A DNA stretch of 64,000 nt from Thermoplasmata archaeon. Lineage in GTDB: Archaea; Thermoplasmatota; Thermoplasmata; RBG-16-68-12; SOIM01. Position 1 is the first letter of the stretch; every line of letters begins with the position of its first letter. Positions 8-28,617 of the stretch are shown one piece after another. The stretch covers positions 17,656 through 81,655 of the forward strand of contig JAGLME010000014.1 in assembly GCA_023140195.1 (NCBI GenBank), written 5' to 3'. Below the pieces are notes generated by a model. That model ran no database searches. It had not been told where the DNA came from and saw only the letters and a list, made by a program, of their open reading frames with translations. The position numbers and the translations under genes are program-made.

Positions 8-661
8 ATGACGTTTGATATGAGGGCCGTTCATTCGGTCACCATCGAGCTTCACGGTGGAATGCTTACACTGGCTTTCATCTGCATTGCTATCAAGGTC
101 ATCGACATGCTTTGGGGCAGGTTCCTGGGAGAGAAGGGTGGGTTCCTTCGAAGGGTGTTGCTGAAGGCGTCCGAGTATTCTTCGCCGACCATTCTGCTGG
201 CGGCCATCGGCGGGGTCGTCGGCCTGCTGCTGTCAGCATATACCGGAGCGAGTCTTGTTCCTGAAGGCACTCTCCAAACCTCTTCTATCACTCTCAACAA
301 GGTCATGGTAACGGTTGCGGCAACTGAGCTCTGGATGCTGTTGATAGCCTTCAACTTGACCTACGGAGAGAAATCCTGGGACACCAGGAACAGGTCCCTC
401 ATGATGATCTTCACCGGAGGCCTGGGCTACTTCTTCTCCATCACTGGTGGCAGCATCGGGGGCACCATGGCAGGAAAGGTCAGCATTATGGAACCGCTCT
501 GGGAGTTCCTTGGCGTGGACCTTCATGCATCCTGGATATTCCCGCCTGAACTCTTGTACGTGATTGTGGCCGTTGTGAGCATCATCGGTGTTCTGTTGGT
601 CATCTACTCCAGCAAGATCCTTGACATAGTATCCATCAGGCACAGAACATCCAACAAATAG
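8..661 (+). CDS. polytopic integral membrane protein, function unknown
   Basis: 217-aa ORF with 5-6 hydrophobic helices (LTLAFICIAIKVI, ILLAAIGGVVGLLLSAY, VMVTVAATELWMLLIAF, LLYVIVAVVSIIGVLLVIY). No stop lies between the window edge and the ATG at 8, so the start may be upstream. No family motif recognised. Confidence 0.55.
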   Translation: MTFDMRAVHSVTIELHGGMLTLAFICIAIKVIDMLWGRFLGEKGGFLRRVLLKASEYSSPTILLAAIGGVVGLLLSAYTGASLVPEGTLQTSSITLNKVMVTVAATELWMLLIAFNLTYGEKSWDTRNRSLMMIFTGGLGYFFSITGGSIGGTMAGKVSIMEPLWEFLGVDLHASWIFPPELLYVIVAVVSIIGVLLVIYSSKILDIVSIRHRTSNK

Positions 662-761: not shown

Positions 762-2465
762 ATGAAACTCACCAAAAGAGACTTAGGTGTGCTGGTATTT
801 GCGGCTTCCCTTGTAGTGTTTTTCTTCGCCGTTGTCGGTTTCGTATCCACTGATATGAAGGCGGATACACCAGGAACGCGGGCGACAGGCGACTATCTAG
901 GTCCCGAATACTGTCAGCAATCTGGATGCCATATTGATATCTATGATTCTTGGATCACATCTCCACACGCGAGCGCCTGGGACACCCTGAACACATCTGC
1001 CGAGAAGAAGGAATGGTGTGAGACCTGCCACACTACTGGAGCCAATGACACAGATCACAACGGCTTCGATCCCGCCACCGACCAGCCTGAGTATCTGAAG
1101 AATGTGACCTGTGAGTCATGCCATGGCCCGGATCCACACTCGTCAGGTTCATCTGATGCAGTGGACTACGGTCCCTCTGTTTGCGGGACATGCCACACAT
1201 CCGAGATTGCCAACACAACAAGGACGTATCATCCTTACTACGACGAATGGGTGAACTCAAAACACGCCATATCTCTCACTGCCGCAGGAGGTATCGTTGC
1301 CACAGATCCAGACTGTCAAGGATGCCACGTTGCCCAGATTGCGATCGCGGAGACCATTGAGGGCGGAACTGCCCAACTCCCTGTGACCGATCCCCAGCCA
1401 ATAACATGCGCCGTGTGCCACGATCCTCACGGCTCTCCCTATCAGAGCCAATTGCGTCTGGACCCGGCAGATTTGTGCGCTACCTGTCATTCTGGAACAA
1501 CTGTGCCTGGCGAAGAGATCAGACACCCCCAATCTTCCATGAGAGAGGGTACCAGCGGCATCAAACCCACTGACGTTCCAAAGAAGGATTTCATGGCGGA
1601 TGTTCTGTGTGCCGACTGCCACCTGTACTCATCCGGTCCTCCCCAGAACATAACTGGACACTCGTTCAGCTTCAAGCCAGAGGCATGCGCGGACTGCCAC
1701 AACGGGAATCCCAGGACATTCGATCTCTCCGTTGATCAGGCTCTGACGGCCGTCAACGCATACCAGTCCAGTACCTCAACTCTCCGAGATCAGGTCGCCT
1801 TCGACCTCGGCATCGCATATTCTATGATCGAGAACGCCACCCGTTACGGTTTCGACCTGGCCACCATCGATCTTGCCATGGATAATTATGAGGATGCCAA
1901 TTACTCCTACGGTTTCGTCACCGCGGACAAGAGTCAGGGTGCTCACAATCCGCAGTATGCCATGGCCTTGCTCAACTTCGCTTCCGACCGGATCGATATG
2001 GTCAAGAACGCTCTGCAGCCCGGACTCGTTACCGGTGTCATCAAGGACTCGGATGACGATACGGTTTCAGGTGTGATTGTCAGACGGAGCGGAAAGGATC
2101 TGGCCATTTCAGGTGCAGATGGTACGTACTCATTTGAATATGCATCTGGAACCTATGATTTCGACCTGGTCAAGGACGGGGAACACGTCGGGACTGTGAG
2201 TCAAGTCTCCATTGTAGGCGGGTCCATGACAAACGCTGGTGAGAGCGTCATAAGCTTCTCCGAGCCGTTCGACTGGACTCTTCCTTTGCTCGCAGTCATA
2301 ATCGTCCTAGTGATACTCCTCGTATTCCTCTTCATGAGATCGGCGGGCAAGAAGGAAGAAAGGGATGGACCCTCGGAAGAACCTGAGGACGAGAAAGAGT
2401 CTCCTGCGACTGATGAGGATAGAGTTGATGAATCCCAGGTCGAGAAAGAACCCGAGATGAAGTGA
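762..2465 (+). CDS. membrane-anchored multihaem c-type cytochrome (8 CxxCH + 1 CX4CH)
   Basis: N-terminal signal/anchor helix. CxxCH motifs: CETCH, CESCH, CGTCH, CQGCH, CAVCH, CATCH, CADCH, CADCH, plus the conserved CQQSGCH. Helical middle region, then a carboxypeptidase-regulatory-like beta domain (GVIKDSDDDTVSGVIV...GTYDFDLVKDG), a C-terminal TM helix and an acidic tail. Paralogue of 6591-8222. Confidence 0.9.
   Translation: MKLTKRDLGVLVFAASLVVFFFAVVGFVSTDMKADTPGTRATGDYLGPEYCQQSGCHIDIYDSWITSPHASAWDTLNTSAEKKEWCETCHTTGANDTDHNGFDPATDQPEYLKNVTCESCHGPDPHSSGSSDAVDYGPSVCGTCHTSEIANTTRTYHPYYDEWVNSKHAISLTAAGGIVATDPDCQGCHVAQIAIAETIEGGTAQLPVTDPQPITCAVCHDPHGSPYQSQLRLDPADLCATCHSGTTVPGEEIRHPQSSMREGTSGIKPTDVPKKDFMADVLCADCHLYSSGPPQNITGHSFSFKPEACADCHNGNPRTFDLSVDQALTAVNAYQSSTSTLRDQVAFDLGIAYSMIENATRYGFDLATIDLAMDNYEDANYSYGFVTADKSQGAHNPQYAMALLNFASDRIDMVKNALQPGLVTGVIKDSDDDTVSGVIVRRSGKDLAISGADGTYSFEYASGTYDFDLVKDGEHVGTVSQVSIVGGSMTNAGESVISFSEPFDWTLPLLAVIIVLVILLVFLFMRSAGKKEERDGPSEEPEDEKESPATDEDRVDESQVEKEPEMK
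934..1140 (+). repeat. high-identity tract shared with 6763-6969 (candidate gene-conversion tract between cytochrome paralogues)
   Basis: Includes a 47-nt perfect match (ttgatatctatgattcttggatcacatctccacacgcgagcgcctgg). Only scattered mismatches over about 200 nt, whereas the rest of the two genes is clearly more diverged at nucleotide level. Confidence 0.7.
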
Positions 2466-3472
2466 ACATGTTGAAGGAACGCCGGAGCCAAGTCCTGGTA
2501 GCGACACTAGCCCTCGTCGCCTCAATCTGCTTGTCATCAATGACCTTCGGCTTTCCAAGCGGCACTGGCGATTCCAGCATTGGATATGGTGGTTGCGCCG
2601 TTACTGGCTGTCATTTCGACGATCCACAAGAAGGGAACGCAACCGTCGAAATGTGGGCCTCAAGCCTTTCTGTGCTCGTGGATGAGACGGTCACCGTCTA
2701 CATCAATGTCACTTCCTGGACGCTCTCCTCCAATAACATGATCGGCATCTTCCTTGTGAGGGCGCTTACGGCGGATGACACTGACGTCCCTTCAAGCGAC
2801 GGTTGGAGGATTACTACGGACCCCAACGGGAACAAGCACAACTATGTGCAAACCACCGTGAGCGGTCCCGGAGATACGGCATCCTTCCGGTGGGAGCTTC
2901 GCGCACCCTTCTCCTCTGGTACCTACAGCCTATTTGCGAGGGTACACCACGGGGGAGGAAGTGCATATTGGGTCGAGGATTCCACGGGGCTCACGTTCGT
3001 GGTTGAGCCCGATGTTTCTGCTCCGCCAGACTTGGTCCTGGTGGACACTTTCTGCGCTTCGGAGTCAGAGGAAGGTGAGCAGATTGTTCTGTATGCCACA
3101 CTATTCAACGATTACACTGCTGATTTGGACGGGATAAGCATCGATTTCGAGATAGACGGCGTGGTCGTTGCCGAGGTTGTCAATCTGACAGTCACCGGCA
3201 AGGGGATCCGCAATGCGACCGCGACTTGGACCTCTGCGGATGCTGGTAACTTCACACTCAATGCAATCGTAGATCCTCAGAACGATATTGTTGAGAGTGA
3301 TGAATCGAACAATGAACTTGGCTTTTCATTCTTGGTTACTGAACCAGAGCCTGAGCCGGTCCCCCGGTTTGAGATACTTGGCCTCTTGCTGGCCGCGCTT
3401 TTCGTTTTCATCGCCTCGGTGGCGGTCATCGGCTTATTGAGAAGGGAGGAGGACGAAGATGAGGAGGATTAG
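2462..3472 (+). CDS. secreted, C-terminally anchored protein with CX4CH motif and CARDB-like domain
   Basis: GTG start overlaps the upstream stop (GTGA). Signal/anchor VLVATLALVASICLSS, with GGCAVTGCH just after it. Beta-rich domain with SSDGW. CARDB-like C-terminal domain (ESDESNNELGF). C-terminal TM helix plus an EEDEDEED tail. Paralogue of 8255-9274. Confidence 0.75.
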   Translation: MNMLKERRSQVLVATLALVASICLSSMTFGFPSGTGDSSIGYGGCAVTGCHFDDPQEGNATVEMWASSLSVLVDETVTVYINVTSWTLSSNNMIGIFLVRALTADDTDVPSSDGWRITTDPNGNKHNYVQTTVSGPGDTASFRWELRAPFSSGTYSLFARVHHGGGSAYWVEDSTGLTFVVEPDVSAPPDLVLVDTFCASESEEGEQIVLYATLFNDYTADLDGISIDFEIDGVVVAEVVNLTVTGKGIRNATATWTSADAGNFTLNAIVDPQNDIVESDESNNELGFSFLVTEPEPEPVPRFEILGLLLAALFVFIASVAVIGLLRREEDEDEED

Positions 3473-4121
3473 TCGCTTTCACTTCCTGTTCACTTGCCTC
3501 GCATCGGTCGTGGTAGTACTTCTCGCTGCTCCGCTGGGCGACAGCTATCAGAACGTGGACGTTGAGAGTTGTGGCGACGCGGAGACCCCGTGTCATGGTG
3601 TGCAGGATTCCAGCGTCAACATCGTTGTGGACGGGCCAGACACTGTCCATACCAACATCCCTGCCACATATATCATCACCGTTATTGGCGGTCCGTCTGA
3701 AACTTATGGTTACTTCGTGCTGGTTGAGGATCCAGATGGTGTCAGCAGGGATCTTCAAGGAGAATTCTTGTTTGAGGTCGCGCCTAACTCGGTAACCAGG
3801 GTGGGAGAGACCAACACCTTTGTCATTGAGTTCACTCCCCCCAGATATGCTGTTCATCTGAAGATGACTGTTGCTGCTGTTTCCTCTGACAACAGTGGAG
3901 AACCGTCCGGTGATGGCTGGAACACAGTTGAGAAGGACATCAAGGTCGAGTACCCATCGAGCGTGGAGTTCCCAGGTCTGGACGTTTCATCAAACGCACA
4001 TCTTCTCGGCTCCGGCATTCTTGCGGTCGGATTCGTGATGTGGGTCGCATTCACATTGATTGATAGAAAGGTCAAGAAGGAGGTGTCGAGAGCTGCAAGA
4101 CGAAAAGAACGGGATAACTAG
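3459..4121 (+). CDS. secreted, C-terminally anchored protein with CX6CH motif
   Basis: ATG overlaps the upstream gene by 14 nt. N-terminal hydrophobic signal, SCGDAETPCH motif, SGDGW motif as in 2462-3472 and 8255-9274. C-terminal TM (ILAVGFVMWVAFTLI) plus a basic tail. Confidence 0.7.
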   Translation: MRRISRFHFLFTCLASVVVVLLAAPLGDSYQNVDVESCGDAETPCHGVQDSSVNIVVDGPDTVHTNIPATYIITVIGGPSETYGYFVLVEDPDGVSRDLQGEFLFEVAPNSVTRVGETNTFVIEFTPPRYAVHLKMTVAAVSSDNSGEPSGDGWNTVEKDIKVEYPSSVEFPGLDVSSNAHLLGSGILAVGFVMWVAFTLIDRKVKKEVSRAARRKERDN

Positions 4122-4659
4122 AAGGGAGTTCTTGTCACGAGTGGCGCAAGGAGCTATCGCGGCAGGTCTGGGCATCGCGGTGGCCGAGGTCGCCTACCTG
4201 TTCAGCTACTTCGGTCCGACCGAGGGCTTCATGTCTGATTGGAAAGGCTCCCTTCCGAAGCGCGACGAGGAAGGCTTCCTAGTGTTCGATCAGAAGTTCA
4301 TCTCGGAGTCCATGATAATCGACATCATTGCGAGGACTGGCAGTTTCATCTTCCTCTTCGAGGGCGAGTTCCACGGCAGGAACGAGCTCCTTCCGGGAAT
4401 AATCTCCAGGGACGCCCAGGGAGTCCTCTTCGCATCGTCCAGGAAGTGCACCCATGAGGGCTGTCTGGTTGAGTTCAGGGATGATGTGGTCGTGAGCTCC
4501 AAGAGCTACCAGAAGGTCTGGTATTGCCTGTGCCATGACGCAATTTTCAATGCCAACAATAATGGGGGCGTACTCGCCGGTCCTCCCCCATCCCCGCTCC
4601 AGCAGTTCGACATAGAAGTGAATGAAGGTGGAAAGAAAGTGAAGTTGATACCACGGTGA
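4060..4659 (+). CDS. Rieske [2Fe-2S] protein with twin-arginine signal
   Basis: Tat motif TRREFLSRV. Rieske boxes CTHEGC and CLCHDA. The only in-frame start upstream of the Tat motif is TTG at 4060, which overlaps the upstream gene by 62 nt. Confidence 0.88.
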   Translation: MIERSRRRCRELQDEKNGITRREFLSRVAQGAIAAGLGIAVAEVAYLFSYFGPTEGFMSDWKGSLPKRDEEGFLVFDQKFISESMIIDIIARTGSFIFLFEGEFHGRNELLPGIISRDAQGVLFASSRKCTHEGCLVEFRDDVVVSSKSYQKVWYCLCHDAIFNANNNGGVLAGPPPSPLQQFDIEVNEGGKKVKLIPR

Positions 4660-4660
4660 T

Positions 4661-5389
4661 ATGGTGGGAATACTAGGTAAGATCCAGACATTCAGCATTA
4701 CGAAGCTCTTCCAACGCCTAGTCAATTGGATTCTTACCAGCGCTGGTCTGAAAGAGATCTGGGAGCATCAGGTCCAGAAGGGCGTTCCCCGGCACGCTCG
4801 AAACCCACTATGGTGTCTGGGCGGAGTGACGCTTGTCGCCTTCATAGTTCAAGTCATGAGCGGGACCTTCCTCGCAACCTATTACGTTCCGTCTGTTGAC
4901 CACGCATGGGACAGCATCAGGTACATCGAACAGGCGGTCCCCTTCGGGTACATCATCAGGAACATCCATCGGTGGACGGCCAACATAATGGTGATCACTC
5001 TGGTCCTTCACGCCATGAGGGTCTACTTCACTAAGGCATACAGAAAGCCAAGGGAACTCAACTGGATGGTTGGTGTGACCCTCTTCTTCATGACGATTGG
5101 GATTGCATTCACCGGATACATTCTCCCCTGGGACCAACGCGCCTATTGGGCCGCGACCGTGGGCACCAACATGATCACTGCTCTCAGCGGTATGCCCGTC
5201 ATAGGCTCCTTCTTACTTCCGATAACTCAGTTTGCCCGGGAGGTGTTCATTGGCGGTGGCGAGATCGGACCCTCTACTCTTACCAGATTCTACGGATTCC
5301 ACATACTGATATTCCCTTTGAGCATCATGATGCTCCTCTTGACCCACTTCTACCTGGTCAGAAAGCACGGGATTGCTGATCCATTATGA
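4661..5389 (+). CDS. cytochrome b6-like subunit (N-terminal four-helix half of cytochrome b)
   Basis: Starts 2 nt after the Rieske stop. His pairs in NIHRWTANIMVITLVLHAMRVYF and FYGFHILIFPLSIMMLLLTHFYLV. Size is typical of split b6-type proteins. Confidence 0.9.
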   Translation: MVGILGKIQTFSITKLFQRLVNWILTSAGLKEIWEHQVQKGVPRHARNPLWCLGGVTLVAFIVQVMSGTFLATYYVPSVDHAWDSIRYIEQAVPFGYIIRNIHRWTANIMVITLVLHAMRVYFTKAYRKPRELNWMVGVTLFFMTIGIAFTGYILPWDQRAYWAATVGTNMITALSGMPVIGSFLLPITQFAREVFIGGGEIGPSTLTRFYGFHILIFPLSIMMLLLTHFYLVRKHGIADPL

Positions 5390-5390
5390 G

Positions 5391-5852
5391 ATGAGAGAAA
5401 TGGTCGCGAAGAAAGAGAAAACCAAGAGAAGAACGCTGAGATCGAGGCCCTTCTGGCCCGGATTCGCCTTAGAGGAACTCTCGATCTTACTGCTATTCTT
5501 CGGCCTCATTCTCATTTTGGCCTCACTCCTTCACCCCTCACAGATATTCGAGTCTGGGCTGGGAGAAACAGAGCTCCAGAGGCTGGAATATCCCGCCGAC
5601 CCCTTCAACACTCCTCCACAGATCCTGCCCGAATGGTACTTCCTCGCCGTCTTTGAGCTCCTGAAGATGATGGATGCCTGGATAGTCACTCTTCTCATCG
5701 GCCTATTCGCGGTCGGGTTCATCAGTGTGCCATTTGCTGAGAGGTTCCTGTCCAAGTACAATGTTGGGGACTGGGTGTTGAGAATTGCTGTCATATTCAT
5801 CGTTATCATTTTCCTGTATTTCACTGCAAAGGGAATGGGTATGGTGGATTAG
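5391..5852 (+). CDS. cytochrome b C-terminal half / subunit IV-like protein
   Basis: PEWYFLAVFELLK (PEWY quinol-site motif) and 3 TM helices. ATG at 5391 lies directly after the cyt b stop (ORF opens at TTG 5373). Confidence 0.85.
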   Translation: MREMVAKKEKTKRRTLRSRPFWPGFALEELSILLLFFGLILILASLLHPSQIFESGLGETELQRLEYPADPFNTPPQILPEWYFLAVFELLKMMDAWIVTLLIGLFAVGFISVPFAERFLSKYNVGDWVLRIAVIFIVIIFLYFTAKGMGMVD

Positions 5853-5860
5853 GTGGTCGA

Positions 5861-6151
5861 ATGAACGAGGAGAAGAAGGAATCAAGGCTCAAGAAATCCA
5901 AGCCCCTATTCGCGGTCATCTTCTTCGTATCACTTGGCGGGTTCTCCGGAAGCCAGGTCCTCTATGCAATACAGGCATTGGCGAGAGGATTCGACATATT
6001 GTGGCTCATCGAGTTCTTCGTATTCGGCTTCTTGCTCGTGTTATCGTTCGTGGTGCTTCTCACCATCATTTATGTTCTCGACACTTCGCAGGGCAGGATT
6101 AAACACAGGAACAAGTTCCTTGAGAGCTTCTTGGGTGATCAGAATGGATGA
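5861..6151 (+). CDS. small 2-TM membrane protein in Rieske/cyt b operon
   Basis: 96-aa ORF 9 nt after the subunit IV gene, with two long hydrophobic helices. Its stop overlaps the next ATG. Confidence 0.55.
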   Translation: MNEEKKESRLKKSKPLFAVIFFVSLGGFSGSQVLYAIQALARGFDILWLIEFFVFGFLLVLSFVVLLTIIYVLDTSQGRIKHRNKFLESFLGDQNG

Positions 6152-6458
6152 GTCGACCGTGAGACATGCTGCCACAGTATCCCTGCTGGCAACGTTCGCG
6201 TTCCTTCCTATCGTTTTCTATTTCATGGCAGTGTCCTACCTTGAAGAGGCTTATGCGGAATCCGCCTTCCTTATCGGCGTTTCATTCGTTCTCATAGCCC
6301 AACTGGTCTACTACTTCGAGAGGGCGTTCACTCCCGCAGAGATCTGGAGGACAAAGGACGGATTCATGGTCCGCCTGATCGGAGAGAAGCCGGCTGAAGA
6401 TGTGTCCTCGTCCGGTCAAGTGGAGGAACCTGGCGAGGAGGCAAGCGAGAAACAGTGA
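6144..6458 (+). CDS. small 2-TM membrane protein with acidic tail
   Basis: The internal ATG at 6144 of ORF 5934-6458 overlaps the upstream stop (ATGGATGA). MDESTV... has two hydrophobic helices and an acidic C-terminus. Confidence 0.55.
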   Translation: MDESTVRHAATVSLLATFAFLPIVFYFMAVSYLEEAYAESAFLIGVSFVLIAQLVYYFERAFTPAEIWRTKDGFMVRLIGEKPAEDVSSSGQVEEPGEEASEKQ

Positions 6459-6460
6459 GG

Positions 6461-6481
6461 TCCTATTTCGGAGGGTTTTTG
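6461..6481 (+). terminator. possible oligo-T terminator of cassette A operon
   Basis: TCCTATTTCGGAGGGTTTTTG directly after the stop at 6458. Archaeal terminators are T-tracts. Weak evidence. Confidence 0.3.
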
Positions 6482-6532
6482 AGGCAGAAAAGGGGAGTCC
6501 ACTCTTCATTCTGAGATTGTCGTTTTTCGCAA

Positions 6533-6555
6533 GGTAGATATAGTTTGTCGTCATT
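6533..6555 (+). promoter_or_regulatory. putative TATA-box promoter of multihaem cytochrome cassette B
   Basis: GGTAGATATAGTTTGTCGTCATT, the paralogous copy of 701-723. AGGAGG RBS at 6581-6586 precedes the TTG start at 6591. Confidence 0.5.
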
Positions 6556-6590
6556 CAAAGTTTGCGATACGAACCTACGGAGGAGGAAGA

Positions 6591-8222
6591 TTGGACACGA
6601 AAAGGAATCGCATTTTTAAGATTCTACTTCTCTCAGTTGTCTTCATCTTCATCGTTGTTCTGATGTCTTTTGCGACCTCTGACTTGAGCGCCGACTCACA
6701 TGGAACCCGCGCTCCCGGAGATTACAAGGGGCCTGAATACTGTCAACAACCCGGCTGCCATGTTGATATCTATGATTCTTGGATCACATCTCCACACGCG
6801 AGCGCCTGGAACACCCTGAACGCATCGCCCGAGAAGAAGGAATGGTGTGAGACCTGCCACACTACTGGAGCCAATGAGCCAGAACACAACGGCTTCGATC
6901 CCGCCACCGACCAACCTGAATATCTGAAGAATGTGACCTGCGAGTCATGCCACGGACCCGACCCGATGTCACTGGCAGATTCGTCAGATGCTACGGATTA
7001 CGACGCTGCGGTCTGCGGCACTTGTCATAGGACCGCTCAGTTCGACGGCCAATCGAAGACCTATCACCCCTATTATGACGAATGGTCGAACTCATCCCAT
7101 GCCCTTTCTCTCACAGCACAGGGAGGACTCGTCGCCACCGATCCAAGTTGCCAGGGCTGTCACGTCGCACAGGTAGCAATCGCTGAGAACTTCGAAGGAG
7201 GGACAGCAGAGCGACCTGTCAAGGACCCCCAGCCCATAGTCTGCGCTGTTTGTCACGATCCCCATGGATCATCCAATGAGAATCAGCTGAGGAAGCCAAT
7301 TGAAGAGATATGCAGTACGTGTCATACCGTGGGTTCGCCCTTGCCTGGCGAGGTCATCAGACATCCACAATCCTCCATGAGAACAGGTATCAGCGGGATC
7401 GATGTGTCCAAGGTCCCCAGGTTGGAGTTCATGAGAGACGCTCTCTGTTCAGACTGTCACATGTACTCGACCGGGCCGCCTCAGAACATAACCGGACACA
7501 CATTCAGGCCAAAGATGGAGGCGTGCGTCTCTTGCCATGCTGCGGACTCCAGAACATTTCCCATTACAGTAGATCAGGCTTCCAGCGCGGTTAACTCTTG
7601 GCAGTCTATTACCCTCGAGAGGTTGCTTTCGACCGAATCAAATCTGACCCTTGCCAAGAATGCGATTGACAACGCCCATCTGTATCATTTCAGCGATCAG
7701 GTCTTGAACACTGCTCAGAATCTGTACGATGACGCCAACTACTCCTACAGTTTCGTGATCGCTGACAGGAGTCAAGGAGCACATAACCTCCCGTACGCAC
7801 TTGCCCTTTTGGACTTTGCCAACGAAAGCTCGCAGGGAATAATCGATATGCTAACGCCAGGAAAGGTGGTCGGGAAGATCGTGGACCAGGATGGAGAGGA
7901 TGTTGTCGGCGCTTCAGTTCTGTTGAACGGTGAGCAGATAGCGGTTTCTGGAAGTGGCGGGAGCTTTGCCATCGATATTGCTCCTGGTACATACACGTTC
8001 AAGATCAAAAAAGACGGCTCGACCATTGGGTCTGTTGAGAACGTCGAGGTTCTGTATAGAGATACCACGGATTTAGGGACCATTTCAACCGAACCCACTC
8101 AAGGAGGATTAGAATTAATGATTCTGGTGGCCGTCTTGATCATCATCGTTGTGGTCATAGTGGTCGTCTATTTCGTGAGATTCAAGCCGCCAAAGGAGAA
8201 TGAGAAGCCGGACGAAGAATAG
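6591..8222 (+). CDS. membrane-anchored multihaem c-type cytochrome, paralogue of 762-2465
   Basis: TTG start after AGGAGG. Same set of 8 CxxCH motifs plus CQQPGCH. Same helical region (GAHNLPYALALL), beta domain (GKIVDQDGEDVVGASV...GTYTFKIKKDG), C-terminal TM and charged tail. Confidence 0.9.
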   Translation: MDTKRNRIFKILLLSVVFIFIVVLMSFATSDLSADSHGTRAPGDYKGPEYCQQPGCHVDIYDSWITSPHASAWNTLNASPEKKEWCETCHTTGANEPEHNGFDPATDQPEYLKNVTCESCHGPDPMSLADSSDATDYDAAVCGTCHRTAQFDGQSKTYHPYYDEWSNSSHALSLTAQGGLVATDPSCQGCHVAQVAIAENFEGGTAERPVKDPQPIVCAVCHDPHGSSNENQLRKPIEEICSTCHTVGSPLPGEVIRHPQSSMRTGISGIDVSKVPRLEFMRDALCSDCHMYSTGPPQNITGHTFRPKMEACVSCHAADSRTFPITVDQASSAVNSWQSITLERLLSTESNLTLAKNAIDNAHLYHFSDQVLNTAQNLYDDANYSYSFVIADRSQGAHNLPYALALLDFANESSQGIIDMLTPGKVVGKIVDQDGEDVVGASVLLNGEQIAVSGSGGSFAIDIAPGTYTFKIKKDGSTIGSVENVEVLYRDTTDLGTISTEPTQGGLELMILVAVLIIIVVVIVVVYFVRFKPPKENEKPDEE

Positions 8223-8254
8223 TGGCTACATTGGAGCAATGAGGGAGGAATCGG

Positions 8255-9274
8255 TTGACCAAGTTTAGGAAATCGCGCAGAAGAATGGCAATATTCGTCG
8301 CCTCGTTCTTACTGGTCACCGGCATCTTCGTTTTCACTCCTAACGATATTCAAGGTTTTCTCGGAGGAGTTGGGGACGGCAAGTTCAGTTACGGTGGATG
8401 TTCCTGCCACATAGGTGAAGCACAGAGGGGCGACGGGACCATGACTTTGTGGGCTTCAACGCTCGAAGCTGATGCCAACCAGGAAGTCACCGTGATCGTG
8501 AATGTGACCGAGACAGTTCTCACCAATGACAAGATCATTGGAGTCTTCCTGCTCAGGGCGATGACGGGCAGTGATTCAGACCAGCCCTCAGAAGATGGAT
8601 GGAGGATCGACTCTGATCCAAATGGCAATGAGAACAACTATGTCATCAAGAACGCAACGGGCCTCGGATCCCCCGTTTCTTTCCAATGGGTCCTTCTGGC
8701 TCCGTTCCGGGGGGGAACCTATGACTTGACGGCGAGAGCCCAACACGGCGGGAATCTCAACAGCTGGTTCGAGACAGGCGAGGTCCTGACATTCTCTGTG
8801 ACAGGGACCCAGTTGATATCCACCAATCTGACCCTCGACGCACCAGAAGAGGTGAACGAGGATGAGCAATTCACGACATCCGCTTGGTTGACAAACGAAG
8901 ATGGCGACCCCTTGGAGGGTTTCCAGGTGGACTTCTTCAGGATTACGACGTATGGAAACATGTATCTCGGCTCCAACATAACCGATAGTGACGGGACCGC
9001 ATATCATTCGGATATCTCGTACGATATCGGGATCTTCAACATCGAAGCGCGCTTCCAGGCGACCTCCACTCACGCACCTTCCAACGCCACTGCAGAGATA
9101 CCTACCATTGGCGAAGTGGAAAGTGAGCCATTCTTGATAGGTGGGGCACCCGCCGTAATCGTGTTTCTCGTCTTTATCATCCTATTCAGCGTATGGACGA
9201 CCTTCGGCTTCGTGATCTATCAACTTGTAAGAATCAACAAAGAGGGGAAAATCGAAGAGGGTGGGAATCAATGA
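8255..9274 (+). CDS. secreted, C-terminally anchored protein with CXCH motif, paralogue of 2462-3472
   Basis: TTG start after GGGAGG. Signal/anchor, with GGCSCH at the position of GGCAVTGCH in the paralogue. SEDGW motif, Ig-like C-terminal domain and C-terminal TM helix. Confidence 0.75.
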   Translation: MTKFRKSRRRMAIFVASFLLVTGIFVFTPNDIQGFLGGVGDGKFSYGGCSCHIGEAQRGDGTMTLWASTLEADANQEVTVIVNVTETVLTNDKIIGVFLLRAMTGSDSDQPSEDGWRIDSDPNGNENNYVIKNATGLGSPVSFQWVLLAPFRGGTYDLTARAQHGGNLNSWFETGEVLTFSVTGTQLISTNLTLDAPEEVNEDEQFTTSAWLTNEDGDPLEGFQVDFFRITTYGNMYLGSNITDSDGTAYHSDISYDIGIFNIEARFQATSTHAPSNATAEIPTIGEVESEPFLIGGAPAVIVFLVFIILFSVWTTFGFVIYQLVRINKEGKIEEGGNQ

Positions 9275-10032
9275 ACGAAGAAAGGCGTCGTTTCATCAAG
9301 TTCGTCGGGCTCGGAGCCGCTGGTGTAGGTATCGGTCTGTTGGGATTCTCTAATCTTTCGAAGCTCCTTACCAGCGCCGCCGCGCTTGGTCCGAATGACC
9401 TGAAGATGAGGAAGTGGGGGATGGTCATCGATTTGGGCAAGTGCACCGGTTGTGGCGCATGTACAGAGGCGTGCCAAGCTGCGCATTTCATACCTTTCAA
9501 TCAAGAGTGGATCAAGATCTATGAGCTGCACGACAACCCTCTGGCCCCTTCATACCACTTCCCTCGGCCCTGCATGCACTGCGAGGACCCTCCCTGCAGG
9601 AACGTTTGTCCCGTGGGTGCGACCTTCAGAAGGGACGATGGCGTCGTATTGATCGACCATAGAATATGCATAGGCTGCCGGTATTGCATGGTCGCCTGCC
9701 CGTACTCAGCACGATACTTCAACTGGGGCGATCCTCCCCACACTCCAGAGGAACTCGCACATGATTATTCGCCTGAAGAACCCTGGCCACATCAAAGAGG
9801 AGTGGTCGAGAAGTGCGATTTCTGCGTGACCCACGGCGAGAAGGGCATGCTTCCAGCATGCGTGATAGGTTGCCCTTCGGGTGCGGTCTATTACGGCGAT
9901 CTCGCGGAGGATGCGGTGTCCAATGGTAAGGAGATACTCAGGGTTTCAGAAGTGATGAGGGTCAGGCAGGGATACAGGTTCAAAGAGGAATTGGGAACTC
10001 ACCCGCGGGTGTACTATCTGCCTCGTGGTTGA
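9271..10032 (+). CDS. NrfC/PsrB/DmsB-family 4x[4Fe-4S] electron-transfer subunit with Tat signal
   Basis: ATG at 9271 overlaps the upstream stop (ATGA). Tat motif RRRFIKFVG. Cluster motifs: CTGCGACTEAC, CMHCEDPPCRNVCP, CIGCRYCMVACP, CDFC...CVIGCP. Confidence 0.9.
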   Translation: MNEERRRFIKFVGLGAAGVGIGLLGFSNLSKLLTSAAALGPNDLKMRKWGMVIDLGKCTGCGACTEACQAAHFIPFNQEWIKIYELHDNPLAPSYHFPRPCMHCEDPPCRNVCPVGATFRRDDGVVLIDHRICIGCRYCMVACPYSARYFNWGDPPHTPEELAHDYSPEEPWPHQRGVVEKCDFCVTHGEKGMLPACVIGCPSGAVYYGDLAEDAVSNGKEILRVSEVMRVRQGYRFKEELGTHPRVYYLPRG

Positions 10033-10044
10033 ATCGGTGATCGT

Positions 10045-11355
10045 TTGAAAGACGAGAAGATGTCCGATGAAGAGATGGAACGCATCGTATTCAGACCTCT
10101 GGTCTACTCAGGCCGAGGCTTCTATGCACTAGTGGTTCTGCTCTCGGGTCTGACCCTTCTTGGTGTATACGCATACATCACCCAACTGTCACAAGGGCTC
10201 ATAGTCACTGGGATGAACGACGAGGTCATCTGGGGAATATACATCACCAATTTCGTTTTCTTCATCGGCATCAGTCACGCCGGCACTCTGATATCAGCGA
10301 TTCTGAGGCTGACAAAGGCCGAGTGGAGGAGACCAATCACCAGAATGGCCGAGGCCATCACCGTCTTCGCGCTGATTGTTGGCGGATCGATGATCCTGAT
10401 AGACATGGGTCGCCCGGACAGGATTCAGAACGTCATCTTCTTCGGAAGGATGCAGTCAGCTATACTCTGGGATTTCCTCTCCATCGCGACCTACCTGACT
10501 GGGAGCTTCATCTATCTGTACCTTCCATTGATTCCAGATCTAGCTAGGCTAAGAGATAAGCTGAAGAACGTCTCCCGATTCAAGATGTGGATATACCGAA
10601 AGTTCTCACTGAATTGGAAGGACACCCCTGAACAGAAGAGGAGACTGGAGCTGGGCATAGGCATCATGGCTGTTCTCATCGTGCCGATCGCGGTTTCGGT
10701 TCACACTGTCGTCTCGTGGATTTTCGGTATGACAACTAGGGCTGGCTGGCACAGTACGATATTCGGTCCATACTTCGTGGTCGGTGCGATATTCTCAGGC
10801 ATCGCTTCCGTCATAATCGCCATGGCGATCTTGCGTAAGGCCTACGGCCTTGAGAAGTTCCTCAAACCAAAACATTTCAAGTATCTCGGCCTGATGCTCT
10901 TGACTCTCAACATCGCTTATCTGTACTTCACCTTGAGCGAATACCTGACGACGGGGTACTCAGGTCCTGAGGCAGAGGCTCTATTACTGGAGCAGATCTT
11001 CGGCGGTTCATATGCAACGTACTTCTGGATATTCGCGGTGTTCGGCATAATAATTCCAGCCTTCATTCTGGCCATTCCTAAGACAAGGACCATCGGTGGA
11101 ATCGTGGTGGCATCGGTGATGGTGAATCTTGGGATGTGGATCAAGCGGTTCATAATCACGGTTCCATCTTTGGCTGTTCCTCAAGTGGGTCTTGAGTGGG
11201 GAATGTACTCTCCAACTTGGGTTGAGTGGGCTATTACTCTCGGAGCGTTCTCAGCGTTCTCCCTTCTGTTCCTGCTATTCTCGAAATTCTTCCCATTGAT
11301 TTCCATCTGGGAGGTCAAGGAGGCACCAGCCACATCAGACGAGGTGTCCGAATAG
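10045..11355 (+). CDS. NrfD/PsrC-family polytopic quinone-interacting membrane subunit
   Basis: 436 aa with about 10 TM helices, sited immediately after the NrfC-type gene. Start is TTG 10045 or ATG 10060. Confidence 0.85.
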   Translation: MKDEKMSDEEMERIVFRPLVYSGRGFYALVVLLSGLTLLGVYAYITQLSQGLIVTGMNDEVIWGIYITNFVFFIGISHAGTLISAILRLTKAEWRRPITRMAEAITVFALIVGGSMILIDMGRPDRIQNVIFFGRMQSAILWDFLSIATYLTGSFIYLYLPLIPDLARLRDKLKNVSRFKMWIYRKFSLNWKDTPEQKRRLELGIGIMAVLIVPIAVSVHTVVSWIFGMTTRAGWHSTIFGPYFVVGAIFSGIASVIIAMAILRKAYGLEKFLKPKHFKYLGLMLLTLNIAYLYFTLSEYLTTGYSGPEAEALLLEQIFGGSYATYFWIFAVFGIIIPAFILAIPKTRTIGGIVVASVMVNLGMWIKRFIITVPSLAVPQVGLEWGMYSPTWVEWAITLGAFSAFSLLFLLFSKFFPLISIWEVKEAPATSDEVSE

Positions 11356-11500
11356 CCGGCACCTGCTCCTCCAGCATCCGCAGACTAGATTGATTTGCCT
11401 CTGTGTCGCTTCCTCACCCCTGAACTGATTCTAGGCGACTTTCTCGACATCGTGAGAGGTTTAAATACGAGGTAAATCTGTTCAATTGACTGGTGAGACA

Positions 11501-12211
11501 ATGATTCTCGGTGTATATGGCCTGAAGGATTCTGGGAAGACGACTCTTGTCGAGGGCCTGACAAATCGACTCACAGAGATGGGGTATTCGGTCGGAACTG
11601 TCAAACACACCCACCTCAAAGATGTCGGTCTGGATGTGGAAGGCTCTGATACATGGAAGCATGCGAGAGCAGGCGCTGGTATCGTCGCATTGAGCTCAAG
11701 CGAGGAGACCATGTTCTTGGTGAAGCGGGAGCTGAAACTGGGAGAAATCGAGACCGCCATGGGTAGCATATCACCGTTCGATCTCCTTTTGGTCGAGGGC
11801 TTCAAAGGCGAAGACATGCCCAAGATCGCCGTCGGAGACATTGAGGAGGAAAGCAACACAGTCCTCAGGTTCACGGACAATATCGACGAGATCGTTGAAT
11901 TCGCTCGAAACAACATAGAATCGGAGAGGATATTGGCAAGACTGCCCGGACTCGATTGTGAGAAATGTGGTTTCCTGTGTGCTGGCATGGCCGCCGAAAT
12001 ACTGGATCACCAGAGGTCTTTCGAGGATTGCGTCTACTACTCGACCGATGTCCTCGTCAGAACCAAAGTCAATGGCAAGAAGATACCTATGGGCAAGTTC
12101 GCAAAGGACGTTCTATCCAAGACGTTGAAGGGTTTGGTCTCTTCCCTCAAGGGCGTCCCCGAGGAGGAGGTCGAGACAATCGAGATCGAAGTCAGCATGA
12201 CCGAGAACTGA
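11501..12211 (+). CDS. mobB: molybdopterin-guanine dinucleotide biosynthesis adapter MobB with C-terminal Cys-containing domain
   Basis: MILGVYGLKDSGKTTLVEGL P-loop and VKHTH motif. C-terminal LPGLDCEKCGFLCAGMA domain. TATA-like GGTTTAAATACG at about 11458. Confidence 0.8.
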   Translation: MILGVYGLKDSGKTTLVEGLTNRLTEMGYSVGTVKHTHLKDVGLDVEGSDTWKHARAGAGIVALSSSEETMFLVKRELKLGEIETAMGSISPFDLLLVEGFKGEDMPKIAVGDIEEESNTVLRFTDNIDEIVEFARNNIESERILARLPGLDCEKCGFLCAGMAAEILDHQRSFEDCVYYSTDVLVRTKVNGKKIPMGKFAKDVLSKTLKGLVSSLKGVPEEEVETIEIEVSMTEN

Positions 12212-12305: not shown

Positions 12306-13112
12306 TTGTCATTCGAATGGCTCAATGCATATCTGGAACATCTGGATGATCTGCGAAAGAGGATCATTGTCATAGCCGCGTCAATCGGCGCGATATTCTT
12401 CTTCTGCATAGTCTTCGAACTCAAATCTGTGGTGGTTTCCGGTATCACACTGGCCTATCCCTACCCTAACCCATTCAACCCGGTGGCAATACAGTTATTC
12501 ACGAAGATGCGAGCGGATTTGGTCCCAGCTGCGATCAACGGCCAGCCCATCATCACCGCCGTTCTCACCCCTCTGGACGCCATCATGGTCGAGATCAAGG
12601 TCGCTCTCTTCATTGCCGTGGCGATCGGGATGCCAATAATCGTCTATCAGATCGGAAAGTTCATTGCTCCAGCTCTGAAGCCAAAGGAGAAGAGCCTCCT
12701 GATCAAGATCGCGCTCCCCTCTGCCCTGTTGTTCATCGCAGGCGCCGTCTTCGCGTACATGTTTGTCGTGCCATTCGTGTTCTCCTTCTTGTACAGAATA
12801 GCTGGGAGCATGGTCGACCAGACATTCCTCAGTCCTGGAGAGTTCATCGATTTCACCTTGACCTTTCTGATAGGATTCGGATTGGCTTTCGAACTTCCAG
12901 TTTTCATGGTCGGTCTTTGTGCATTGGGTCTTGTTCAACCAGACTTCTGGAAGAAGAACTGGAGATATTCCACAGTGGCAATATTCGTCTTCGGAGCGGT
13001 CATCACTCCTGATGGCAGTGGGGTGACCATGTTTCTGGTGGCGATCCCTATGCTCGTGCTTTACGTGGCTGGCTATTTGATATCGAGATACAAATACCGT
13101 GGGGAGAGTTGA
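12306..13112 (+). CDS. tatC: twin-arginine translocase subunit TatC
   Basis: 268 aa with 6 TM helices and a TatC-like N-terminus (LEHLDDLRKRIIVIAASIGAIFFF). TTG start; no in-frame ATG nearby. Confidence 0.8.
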   Translation: MSFEWLNAYLEHLDDLRKRIIVIAASIGAIFFFCIVFELKSVVVSGITLAYPYPNPFNPVAIQLFTKMRADLVPAAINGQPIITAVLTPLDAIMVEIKVALFIAVAIGMPIIVYQIGKFIAPALKPKEKSLLIKIALPSALLFIAGAVFAYMFVVPFVFSFLYRIAGSMVDQTFLSPGEFIDFTLTFLIGFGLAFELPVFMVGLCALGLVQPDFWKKNWRYSTVAIFVFGAVITPDGSGVTMFLVAIPMLVLYVAGYLISRYKYRGES

Positions 13113-13184
13113 CTGGCTGACTCTCTGTGTCTACCGCCGAAAAGCTAATAAGCCTTGACGCAATTGAAAACCCTGGGTGAAATC

Positions 13185-13583
13185 ATGGGTCTGCTTGATC
13201 CTGGACCGGAATTAATAATCCTGATATTCATAGTAGTTATACTGCTTTTTGGCGCGAAGAAGATCCCCGAACTTGCCAGAGGGGTAGGCAGAGCGATGGG
13301 TGAGTTCAAGAGGGGGAAGATGGAGATCGAGCGGGAGATAGCCCAATCCTCATCTGCTGGCGCGGCGTCTGCAGCCGGTGGCGATGGAATTACTGCTGCC
13401 GCGAAAGAACTGGGGCTCATCGTGGAAGGTCGAAGCGAGGCCGAGCTGAGGGGCAAGATCCTCGAAGAGATCCCCAAGAGGGACAGAGTCATTGTTGTCA
13501 GTGTTGCCAAGGCATTCAGGATTGATGTTGAAGGCATAGGCGTTGACGAGCTTAGGGAACGCATTCTGGTTGCGTTGCAGTAG
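13185..13583 (+). CDS. tatA: TatA/E-type translocase subunit with extended C-terminal domain
   Basis: MGLLDPGPELIILIFIVVILLFGAKKIPELARGVGRAMGEFKRG gives a TatA TM helix plus amphipathic helix. An additional ~60-aa C-terminal region contains two ELGLIVEG...ELR..IL-type motifs. Confidence 0.8.
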   Translation: MGLLDPGPELIILIFIVVILLFGAKKIPELARGVGRAMGEFKRGKMEIEREIAQSSSAGAASAAGGDGITAAAKELGLIVEGRSEAELRGKILEEIPKRDRVIVVSVAKAFRIDVEGIGVDELRERILVALQ

Positions 13584-17052: not shown

Positions 17053-17943
17053 GTGGTCATGGCCGTCAAGAAGAAGATCGTGATGTTAGGGGATAGCGCT
17101 GTTGGCAAGACTAGCTTGATCAGACGCTTTGTGTTCGACAAGTTCGATGATGCCTATATATCGACAATAGGCAGCAAGGTCACCAAGAAGGAGATGGTGA
17201 TTCCCAAGGATGGCAAGGAGACCGACCTGAGGCTCATGATATGGGACGTCCTGGGGAGAGAGGGCTACACCGCAACACACTCCAGGACCTTTGCGGGCGT
17301 TCACGGTGCGATACTCGTTTGCGATATGACCCGGAGGGAGACGCTGAAGACCCTTGAACGGTATTGGATACCACTGCTCTTCGATGTCGTGGAGCACGTT
17401 CCGCTGATCTTTGCCTGCAACAAGAACGATCTGTCCGCTGATTCCGCTTTTGAGCAGGACGACCTCATTTCAATCGCATCAAGGTACAATTCGGGGTTCA
17501 AGAAAGAGCTTCCAGCCAATCTCACAACTTGTTTTTCGACCAGTGCCAAGACCGGGGAGAATGTAGAGAGCGCCTTCGAAAGCCTGGGGCATATGGTACT
17601 TGCCAAGGGGATACCTGATGACCCGATAAAGGACCTCTATGAGAGCTTGGTGGCAATGGGTAAGCACAGGCAGACGGACACCGGTACTCCTGTGGGAGCT
17701 CTTGATGCCATCATAGTCGATTTCTGTGACGATTTCAAGGATGATCGGGTGGCCATGTCTCTTCTTCGTCAGGAGATTGTCAGAGCCGGCATAGACATCA
17801 GAAGTCCGTCGAAGGAAGGTCTTCTGAAGGTTGCCGAGTACCTGGCTGAAGCTGGGGCTGAGTTCCAGGACGAGAAGACTGTTCTGGCAAACAGGGACAA
17901 GTGGATGAATCTGGCAAGGAATGTGAAAGACCAGTCGGGCTAG
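17053..17943 (+). CDS. Ras/Rab-like small GTPase with ~120-aa C-terminal helical extension
   Basis: G1 GDSAVGKT, switch I YISTIGSKV, G3 WDVLGRE, G4 CNKNDL, G5 SAKTGENV. No C-terminal Cys. GTG 17053 or ATG 17059. Confidence 0.85.
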   Translation: MVMAVKKKIVMLGDSAVGKTSLIRRFVFDKFDDAYISTIGSKVTKKEMVIPKDGKETDLRLMIWDVLGREGYTATHSRTFAGVHGAILVCDMTRRETLKTLERYWIPLLFDVVEHVPLIFACNKNDLSADSAFEQDDLISIASRYNSGFKKELPANLTTCFSTSAKTGENVESAFESLGHMVLAKGIPDDPIKDLYESLVAMGKHRQTDTGTPVGALDAIIVDFCDDFKDDRVAMSLLRQEIVRAGIDIRSPSKEGLLKVAEYLAEAGAEFQDEKTVLANRDKWMNLARNVKDQSG

Positions 17944-24081: not shown

Positions 24082-24252
24082 TAAACTCCATTATACGTCA
24101 AATTGTTGCGAATTCCGGCTAAATCACGCTAACCTTAAGTACGTCCTCGGAAATCATTGATGGATGCCTTAACCTCAGAGGTACGCCAAGAACGGTATGA
24201 GGAGGGTCGTGTCTTGAGTTTGAGGTTCTCAATACATAATGGGAGAAATCGG

Positions 24253-28458: not shown

Positions 28459-28617
28459 TTAACATCGTTATGTTTCGGGTAGCCCAGCATTTTGGCTCGA
28501 ACACACTAAGTTTAAGTATCCTTATGGAATTCATCTGACAGATTCCCCGATTGCGAAGGATGCAACTCTGAAGTGGATGGCTATCCTCGTTGGGGGGTTC
28601 TGGATATGGTAGGAGGA

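Follow-up and report, generated by a model that had tools for sequence, protein, structure and literature searches.

Nine-haem cytochrome cassettes with alternative quinol modules in a probable respiratory supercluster of an uncultivated Thermoplasmata archaeon

In the archaeal Methanoperedenaceae, several alternative menaquinone:cytochrome c oxidoreductase gene clusters lie beside multihaem cytochromes, and have been proposed to feed extracellular electron transfer (Leu et al. 2020, PMC7327174). The modules include a noncanonical bc1/b6f type with 2 hypothetical proteins, a cytochrome b with a multihaem cytochrome, and an NrfD with an iron-sulfur (Fe-S) protein and a multihaem cytochrome (PMC7327174). 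Multihaem-based Fe(III) reduction has been proposed for Archaeoglobales as well (PMC8280799). Among Thermoplasmata, almost no c-type cytochromes were known in 2015 (PMC4429474), and the iron metabolism of Ferroplasma involves copper proteins, not multihaem wires (PMC8280799). OcwA (6I5B) is a nine-haem cell-surface terminal reductase of Thermincola potens with iron-oxide reductase activity, and OmhA (6QVM) is an S-layer undecahaem cytochrome of Carboxydothermus ferrireducens (PMC6703420; PMC9250108); both hosts are Gram-positive metal reducers, and the family formed by these proteins has been described as "very poorly represented" (PMC9250108). Here, we describe relatives of OcwA and OmhA encoded next to quinol modules in a stretch of 64,000 nucleotides (nt) from contig JAGLME010000014.1 (assembly GCA_023140195.1) of an uncultivated Thermoplasmata archaeon; the whole stretch is called the window, and positions are counted from its first letter.

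A sequence-only reading of positions 762-11355 had described 2 paralogous multihaem cytochrome cassettes, one continuing into a Rieske/split cytochrome b6 module (cassette A) and the other into an NrfC/NrfD module (cassette B). All of the open reading frames (ORFs) that it named were present on the + strand, and the arrangement into 2 cassettes was upheld by profile hidden Markov model (HMM) searches, comparison with solved structures, and fold searches. The cluster does not start at position 762, however. Its upstream genes run past the edge of the window, so positions 762-11355 are only the 3' half of a respiratory supercluster of approximately 21-24 kb. This was seen in L003, a locus on the window's own DNA that begins 9.2 kb before position 1. 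The supercluster spans at least 21 kb from a CcmF-like gene to the MobB gene, or approximately 24 kb if TatC, TatA, and the CcmF gene in full are counted, and it encodes 4 OcwA-like cytochromes and at least 3 quinol modules. The proposal of a duplicated output unit fed by 2 entries from the quinone pool therefore survived as a concept but not in its numbers. We consider it reasonably probable that the locus serves electron transfer from menaquinol to extracellular acceptors through alternative entry modules.

Nine-haem cytochromes of the OcwA/OmhA family

The first gene of each cassette encodes a multihaem c-type cytochrome, A1 (762-2465, 567 amino acids [aa]) in cassette A and its paralogue B1 (6591-8222, 543 aa) in cassette B. 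Motif counts and blastp agreed with the earlier description of these genes as paralogues with 8 CxxCH motifs and a conserved CQQ[SP]GCH, the latter being CQQSGCH in A1 and CQQPGCH in B1. The 2 proteins shared 57% identity over 511 aa (blastp E = 0), and their genes were 73% identical over 836 nt. All 9 haem sites were kept in a 24-sequence family alignment, in which the spacing of site 1 varied (CX2-5CH), and for this reason the CX4CH motif was counted as the ninth haem site. Among the remaining window ORFs of 80 aa or longer, none had more than 1 CxxCH.

A phmmer search of A1 against the Protein Data Bank (PDB) returned OcwA (6i5b, E 8.5e-23) and OmhA (6qvm, 2.7e-8), followed by octahaem nitrite reductases at about 4e-5. 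We also predicted the structure of A1 with AlphaFold2 (AF2) from a 48-sequence alignment and without haems, which gave a predicted local distance difference test (pLDDT) score of 82 and a predicted TM-score (pTM) of 0.72. In the model, the haem domain is followed by a bundle of 3 helices (residues 324-417, with helices at 324-358, 366-389, and 397-417), a beta-sandwich (421-496), and a transmembrane (TM) helix (506-528). The best Foldseek match of the model was 6i5b, with E 8e-12 and a moderate target-normalized TM-score of 0.52, and the next was 6qvm. By sequence and by predicted fold, A1 and B1 are thus members of the OcwA/OmhA family.

In OcwA, the nonligating distal histidines at the 2 penta-coordinate haems are H282 and H381 (PMC9250108). 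The HMMER alignment placed the HH pairs of OcwA opposite Y156-H157 and R254-H255 of A1, and among the equivalent positions of the family alignment, H255 was invariant and H157 was conserved in at least 90% of sequences.

The features noted earlier at the C terminus of both cytochromes (a beta domain, one TM helix, and a charged tail) were borne out by a CarboxypepD_reg match in B1, hydropathy, and the AF2 model; B1 otherwise matched the same Pfam families as A1, and the tail that follows the C-terminal TM anchor of A1 is acidic. A hydropathy scan gave 1 N-terminal and 1 C-terminal hydrophobic helix for each cytochrome and each partner protein. The predicted outward-facing topology fits the N-terminal signal or TM segment, the C-terminal TM anchor, and the twin-arginine translocation (Tat) signals of the neighboring subunits.

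Quinol modules, partner proteins, and transcription units

The quinol module of cassette A begins with A3 (4060-4659), a predicted Tat-exported Rieske [2Fe-2S] protein identified by Pfam (Rieske, E 1.7e-6), by NCBIfam (b6f PetC-like matches), and by its CTHEGC and CLCH boxes. Its Tat motif, TRREFLSRV, lies upstream of the start chosen by the gene caller and is conserved in orthologues as RREFL or RRDFI. Inspection of the start region (window 4060-4141; L084 16693-16864) revealed ATA or ATT 2 codons before the paired arginines in 2 lineages. Since the Tat motif is kept although it falls outside the called genes, the Rieske gene starts either at an upstream TTG, which gives a 62-nt overlap with the preceding gene, or at a noncanonical ATH codon.

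A4 (4661-5389) is a b6-type cytochrome b with 4 TM helices (Pfam Cytochrome_B, E 6e-50). Its nearest solved relative is cytochrome b6 of the b6f complex (6rqf_I, E 4.6e-53), ahead of bc1, and it has H-x13-H, H-x14-H, and the CLGG cysteine that marks the haem ci site of b6. A5 (5400-5852, with the longest ORF from 5373) is a PetD-like subunit IV with 3 TM helices and PEWY at residue 77 (Pfam Cytochrom_B_C, E 1.7e-9). Two small subunits of the b6-type module, each with 2 TM helices by hydropathy, complete the cassette. A6 (5861-6151), which is kept in L002 and L084, is paralogous (phmmer E 1e-8) to a 97-aa protein encoded in the upstream b6 module, and A7 (6144-6458), conserved in L002, L084, L085, and L086, matches (phmmer E 6e-5) a 78-aa protein from the corresponding module of L002. 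With the upstream b6-module copy of its own contig, A7 did not reach E 1e-4 in phmmer.

Pfam, motifs, and hydropathy therefore agreed with the Tat-signal Rieske protein, b6-like cytochrome b, PEWY subunit IV, and 2 mini-proteins with 2 TM helices each that had been read from the sequence. The gene order stated for cassette A needed correction: all of the genes named are there, but position 3472 does not lead straight into the Rieske gene, because a third gene, A2b (3459-4121), intervenes. Cytochrome f, cytochrome c1, or a fused mono- or dihaem c subunit was not found in cassette A, of which A1 is the only c-type cytochrome.

In cassette B, B3 (9271-10032, with the longest ORF from 9193) is a predicted Tat-exported protein of the NrfC/PsrB/DsrO type. 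This 253-aa protein matched Pfam Fer4_11 (E 1e-21) and has an RRRFIKF Tat motif and 16 cysteines in 4 [4Fe-4S] cluster motifs. The NCBIfam DsrO model was matched with 207 bits, barely above the cut-off of 200, and the nearest solved proteins were PsrB (2vpw_B), ArrB, and the Fe-S domain of ActB (6f0k_B residues 789-991). B4 (10045-11355) is an integral membrane subunit of the NrfD family (Pfam NrfD, E 3.4e-36), putatively quinol interacting, with at least 8 hydrophobic segments in a crude hydropathy scan. Its nearest solved relatives are the ActC subunits of alternative complex III (ACIII), namely, 6f0k_C (E 4.3e-71), 6btm_C (1e-64), 6lod_C, and 8k9e_C, and the sequence search of solved structures returned no PsrC chain at E 1e-3.

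Pfam and motifs were in accord with the four-cluster NrfC/PsrB-type protein and NrfD/PsrC-type subunit recognized by the sequence-only reading, and its comparison with ACIII gained from the proximity of B4 to ActC and the lack of a PsrC match at that threshold. Since B4 is ActC-like and B3 resembles the Fe-S part of ActB, cassette B is, as judged from sequence, an "ACIII-core-like" pair of Fe-S and ActC-type subunits, minus the other Act subunits and the molybdenum (Mo)-like domain. Genes for the pentahaem ActA and for ActD, ActE, and ActF were absent from L003 (the only ActF match was a weak cross-match of B4), and B3, with only 253 aa, leaves no room for the molybdopterin-like domain of ActB1. 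Membership in canonical ACIII was rejected on account of these missing components. Membership in DsrMKJOP was likewise rejected, since B4 reached only 127 bits against the DsrP cut-off of 350 (NCBIfam) and neither the window nor L003 had DsrM, DsrK, or DsrJ. A molybdopterin enzyme, which had been reported as lacking, was indeed not found among the window ORFs longer than 590 aa. We also looked for orthology to a characterized complex with the same subunit set, and no search gave one.

Between cytochrome and quinol module, each cassette encodes secreted, C-terminally anchored partner proteins. In A2 (2462-3472), an N-terminal CAVTGCH motif precedes a choice-of-anchor-V-like beta-sandwich and a CARDB domain, and the protein is anchored by a C-terminal TM helix. 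B2 (8255-9274), its paralogue, has CSCH, a beta-sandwich, an Ig-like domain, and the same kind of anchor, and A2b, the second partner of cassette A (220 aa), combines CX6CH and a choice-of-anchor V domain with a C-terminal TM anchor helix at 183-201. The description of A2 and B2 as paralogues that follow each cytochrome held, with 41% identity over 226 aa (E 3e-53) and matching hydropathy. A2 matched Pfam CARDB (E 1.6e-13) and reached 26.9 bits with the NCBIfam model choice_anch_V, under the cut-off of 42; A2b reached 55.0 bits with NF041895 (cut-off 42), and B2 gave a weak Big_1 match and no NF041895 match. The beta-sandwich domain is common to A2, B2, A2b, and an upstream 333-aa protein (L003 8256-9257), and A2b orthologues occupy the same position in L002, L084, and L085.

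A Cys-His pair after the signal peptide was invariant in 16 of 16 archaeal paralogues and orthologues of the partner proteins, with a second cysteine ahead of it at spacings from CX1CH to CX7CH. We then searched 1.84 billion representatives exhaustively with phmmer; A2b alone served as the query, the three-sequence domain alignment of A2, B2, and A2b having been dropped because A2b was misaligned in it. The search found 17 relatives, 16 of them single-domain proteins, and each of these 16 had exactly 1 C-Xn-CH at residues 33-52, often with the only 2 cysteines of the protein. The spacing n was 1 in 6 relatives, 2 (the canonical value) in 3, and 4-10 in 7. The C termini were TM helices in archaeal relatives and type IX secretion system (T9SS) or MYXO-CTERM-like tails in bacterial ones. 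The C-Xn-CH motif is thus real and family-wide.

The AF2 model of A2 comprised 2 beta-sandwiches and a TM helix with a pLDDT of 67, falling below 50 in the motif region (23-57). Foldseek matched this model to generic tandem Ig-like/CARDB structures only, and the PDB sequence search with A2 and A2b returned nothing beyond CARDB. An HMM of the partner domain matched none of 79 bacterial OcwA-like loci, and 2 bacterial choice-of-anchor V relatives lay on contigs of just 3.4-3.6 kb without cytochromes, which lent no support to a general redox role. In a literature search that was not exhaustive, we found no account of this cluster or of the function of the choice-of-anchor V domain. One tentative proposal, of which we are rather doubtful, is that A2, A2b, and B2 belong to an unrecognized class of redox adaptors that would hold a single haem or metal at the N-terminal C-Xn-CH and pass electrons from the Rieske or Fe-S protein to the OcwA-type cytochrome, the cassettes then being new respiratory complexes and the lineage one of archaea capable of extracellular electron transfer. 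The motif itself offers a concrete, testable lead.

Upstream, positions 1-9239 of L003 begin with the end of a gene for a 928-aa CcmF-like protein, a 453-aa anchored protein, and an anchored 12-haem cytochrome. Next come a second cytochrome b of the b6 type, in which the CLGG cysteine is again present, a short subunit IV that lacks PEWY, and 2 mini-protein paralogues, followed by 2 OcwA-like cytochromes (529 and 521 aa), the 333-aa paralogue of A2 and B2, and the gene at window positions 8-661 (+ strand). The 12-haem cytochrome, b6, short subunit IV, and 2 small subunits constitute a third module, which has no Rieske protein. An OcwA-like cytochrome, the 333-aa partner, and the protein of 8-661 constitute a further cassette, M2, of which 8-661 is the last gene. 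The latter encodes a divergent DUF2231-like membrane protein with 5 TM helices by hydropathy and 39 homologues, those with a named source being from Thermoplasmata/Thermoplasmatota. Pfam DUF2231 was matched by 7 of 20 homologues (best E 7.6e-6), and the invariant residues of the family were H9, E14, H16, N97-K98, and G148-S-x-G151 (a GSxGG motif). Orthologues stand at the same position in L001, L084, and L085, always after an OcwA-like cytochrome and a 333-aa partner, and the protein is a candidate for a fourth membrane module of redox or quinol function.

Genes within each cassette overlap, abut, or are separated by about 30 nt at most on a single strand. For A5 (5400), A7 (6144), B3 (9271), and B4 (10060), translation probably begins inside the longest ORF, not at its 5' end. 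Each cytochrome gene has its own TATA-like box ahead of it. A longer promoter-like element, TAGATATANNTTGTCGTCATT, is common to A1 and B1 and lies on the + strand at 703-723 and 6535-6555, respectively. The A1 element consists of a TAGATATA box followed by TTGTCGTCATT and lies 39 nt ahead of the ATG. The 2 copies are identical at 19 of 19 specified positions and differ at 2 N positions, and TAGATATANNTTGTCGTCATT had 2 matches in the window against 0 expected from 100 shuffles. The element is kept with 1-3 changes in the L002 orthologues. A second copy of TCGTCATT / TTGTCGT was observed approximately 35 nt farther upstream of both elements, and the arrangement could represent promoter duplication together with a site for a regulator. 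From the individual TATA-like boxes and the tight spacing within cassettes, we infer that the cassettes are separate, possibly co-regulated operons, the element serving as their promoter.

Conservation and the route of electrons

Close homologues of A1 (35-93% identity) were found only in metagenome-assembled genomes (MAGs) and metagenomes of Thermoplasmata/Thermoplasmatota. The same cassettes are present on 5 other contigs (L001, L002, L084, L085, and L086), the closest relative being the 93%-identical L002. In a neighbor-joining tree without support values, the cytochrome paralogues grouped by cassette type across genomes, which suggests that the duplications predate the divergence of these MAGs. 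Genes for cytochrome c maturation, for which a check had been advised, were found beside the cluster: the CcmF-like gene in L003, and CcmABC with CcmF-like genes next to the cassettes in 2 of the 5 other contigs; the loci with adjacent genes of these kinds were L002, L003, L084, and L086. HemD (uroporphyrinogen-III synthase; 63079-63885, - strand) is encoded in the window, so tetrapyrrole synthesis is represented on the same contig as the cytochrome cluster.

More distant OcwA-like genes (approximately 25-35% identity) were common, among the matches listed, in Gemmatimonadota, Verrucomicrobiota, Ignavibacteria, and other bacteria. A contig profile scan with the cytochrome alignment gave, again among the matches listed, distant relatives of at best 30% identity, with one "Euryarchaeota archaeon RBG_19FT_COMBO_56_21" and the rest being bacteria. 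Within 10 kb of the bacterial OcwA-like loci, a cytochrome b was present in 10 of 79 and NrfC/NrfD-like genes in 6 of 79. The order Rieske-cytochrome b-multihaem cytochrome was seen in L014, and NrfCD, Rieske, cytochrome b, and a multihaem cytochrome occurred together in L060. The recurrence of this cytochrome family with both quinol modules in bacteria supports a functional link between them. A match of E 1.5e-130 between B4 and the Gemmatimonadota NrfD of L060 is a hint that genes may have moved laterally between bacteria and the archaeal lineage.

In the route that we favor, electrons would leave the (mena)quinol pool through one of several alternative modules. Entry through cassette A would involve a Q-cycle run by the Tat-exported Rieske protein, the b6-type cytochrome b, the PEWY subunit IV, and the 2 small subunits with 2 TM helices each; entry through cassette B would use the Tat-exported four-cluster Fe-S protein and the ActC-like NrfD subunit, and a further entry would be the Rieske-less b6/12-haem module upstream. 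Electrons would then pass to the cognate nine-haem cytochrome, held on the outer face of the membrane by its beta-sandwich stalk and TM helix, and the cytochrome would reduce acceptors outside the cell, for which humics, metal oxides, and a partner cell are candidates. The modules may differ in the redox potential of the acceptors that they serve or in the energy that they yield. We infer complex formation, the direction of electron flow, the substrate, and the role of the partner proteins from sequence.

Several points weigh against this route, and they concern the substrate, the direction, and the association of the parts. With regard to the substrate, the nine-haem proteins may act on soluble compounds (nitrite, hydroxylamine, NO, sulfite, polysulfide, or tetrathionate) as reductases of the Nrf, Onr, or Mcc kind, with cassette B working like NrfABCD. 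NCBI labels the homologues "ammonia-forming cytochrome c nitrite reductase" (c552), cassette B does hold an NrfC/NrfD pair, and the Cytochrom_C552 match and the octahaem nitrite reductases as next-nearest solved relatives place A1 and B1 in the NrfA superfamily. Catalysis of this kind is conceivable because both OcwA-type open-coordination haem pockets seem to be conserved in the A1/B1 family and OcwA slowly reduces nitrite and hydroxylamine (PMC6703420). The NrfA label is unsupported, however, and was rejected as an annotation, because neither A1 nor B1 has a CXXCK haem, all 9 motifs ending in His, and because the Pfam match covers only positions 242-383 of the 438 in the profile, which is the C-terminal part of NrfA. 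Further, the nitrite kcat of OcwA is very low, about 1 per minute (PMC6703420), and the nearest relatives by both sequence and fold are 2 surface metal reductases, not octahaem nitrite reductase or NrfA. Four paralogues with 3 or 4 quinol entries also suit export tuned to redox potential better than they suit an enzyme with a single substrate, and we regard the soluble-substrate alternative as unlikely.

Electrons may instead flow inward: the surface cytochromes would take them from a cathode, a syntroph, Fe(II), or a reduced mineral and pass them to the quinone pool, with Rieske/b6 running uphill, or to a terminal oxidase whose gene lies elsewhere. In principle, multihaem wires can work in both directions, and ACIII-like modules occur in iron oxidizers. 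Rieske/cytochrome b complexes have been implicated in uphill electron flow in iron oxidizers, among them Ferroplasma, which also belongs to Thermoplasmata (PMC8280799). Neither the window nor L003 encodes a terminal oxidase, a cupredoxin, or a Cyc2-like protein, however; the pyruvate:ferredoxin oxidoreductase and H+-pyrophosphatase in the window fit an anaerobic heterotroph, and both OcwA and OmhA are reductases in their own hosts. These observations make inward flow quite improbable.

The physical association of the cytochromes with the modules is proposed from gene order, and the cytochromes could be independent surface proteins while Rieske/b6 and NrfCD serve other partners, as the TATA-like element of each cytochrome gene, with the cassettes as separate units, and paralogue M1, which has no module directly 3' of it, might suggest; yet the overlapping, abutting, or closely spaced genes of each cassette on one strand, the cytochrome-partner-module order kept on the 5 other contigs, the co-clustering of cytochrome paralogues with module type, and the lack of a further c-type protein in the cassettes that could accept electrons from the Rieske or Fe-S subunits make such incidental adjacency highly improbable. 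Outward transfer from menaquinol through alternative modules is therefore the account that we retain, at the strength given above.

Neighboring genes and comparison with described systems

Directly downstream of the NrfD gene, the + strand encodes a MobB-like P-loop protein with a C-terminal Fe-S domain (11486-12211; Pfam MobB, E 1.4e-28, and FeS, PF04060), TatC (12306-13112; Pfam PF00902, matched by the gene in L003 and in L001), and TatA/E (13155-13583; TatA_B_E, E 5.8e-15). Pfam confirmed the earlier naming of these 3 genes. No molybdoenzyme gene lies near the MobB-like gene with PF04060, which is kept at this site in L002 and missing from it in L001.

Farther along the window, we observed 3 small GTPases of the Ras/Roc family (17053-17943, 48328-48903, and 48965-49570, + strand) and 2 large STAND (AAA_16/NB-ARC) NTPases with TPR (18008-20974 on the + strand and 21373-23559 on the - strand). 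Two paralogous giant proteins of 1358 and 1248 aa (24157-28233 and 28573-32319, + strand) carry a BNR repeat and tandem CarboxypepD_reg domains and may be surface or S-layer-like proteins; the CarboxypepD_reg stalk domain type is common to them and the cytochromes. A gene on the - strand (14899-16890) encodes an extremely acidic protein of 663 aa that matched no Pfam family, has a TM segment at its N terminus, and contains many repeats of D-x-D/N-G-type motifs. Rpo7, an A-type ATPase, and TATA-like promoters are archaeal markers of the window, and a tRNA scan found no tRNA genes.

If electrons are indeed exported by this route, extracellular acceptors could support respiration in an uncultivated Thermoplasmata group, a capacity that bears on the cycling of iron, manganese, and humics in sediments. 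The OcwA/OmhA family is extended into archaea and many bacterial phyla. A Rieske/b6 module beside an ActC-like module, both with paralogous outputs, would also provide a natural system for examining the choice between quinol oxidases of different energy yield.

OcwA and OmhA are the nearest relatives of A1 and B1 in sequence and fold and share with them the NrfA-like three-helix bundle, and OcwA is also alike in its 9 haem sites and in the distal-His residues of its 2 open-coordination haems, which are conserved in A1. The archaeal proteins differ from both in that identity is only approximately 20-30%, in the CX4CH of site 1, in an extra CarboxypepD_reg-like beta-sandwich with a C-terminal TM anchor, and in occurring as 4 paralogues whose genes lie beside quinol modules and beta-sandwich partners.

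Cassette A resembles b6f and the Firmicute-type Rieske/b6c complexes in its Tat-exported Rieske protein with CTHxGC/CxCH boxes, its split cytochrome b, which has the haem-ci cysteine and, in helix D, H-x14-H, and its PEWY subunit IV. In contrast to those complexes, it has no cytochrome f/c1 or fused c-type domain, includes 2 novel subunits with 2 TM helices each, and has anchored beta-sandwich proteins and a nine-haem cytochrome as candidate acceptors. As part of the tentative adaptor proposal, the partner proteins would be functionally like cytochrome f/c1, given a beta-rich fold, an N-terminal haem site (putative in the partners), and a C-terminal TM anchor. Cassette B is like ACIII (6F0K, 6BTM, and 6LOD) in that an NrfD-type subunit is accompanied by a c-type cytochrome and a periplasmic Fe-S subunit and no Mo cofactor is present, but its cytochrome is an unrelated nine-haem protein of the OcwA type. 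It shares the NrfC/NrfD-type pair with NrfABCD and DsrMKJOP, whereas the NrfABCD system has a pentahaem NrfA with a CXXCK haem that has no counterpart in A1 or B1.

The closest parallel at the level of the whole system, as compared by description, is with Methanoperedenaceae, where a single archaeon likewise has several quinol-oxidizing modules, each near multihaem cytochromes. The present locus differs in belonging to Thermoplasmata, in encoding nine-haem OcwA-type cytochromes where theirs are six-haem, and in being gathered into a single supercluster; it differs further in its ActC-like/Fe-S core, its stalked and anchored cytochromes, and its C-Xn-CH partner proteins. The concept of multiple quinol:cytochrome c modules has thus already been described in other archaea, and it is the lineage, the cytochrome type, the partner proteins, and the supercluster that set this locus apart.

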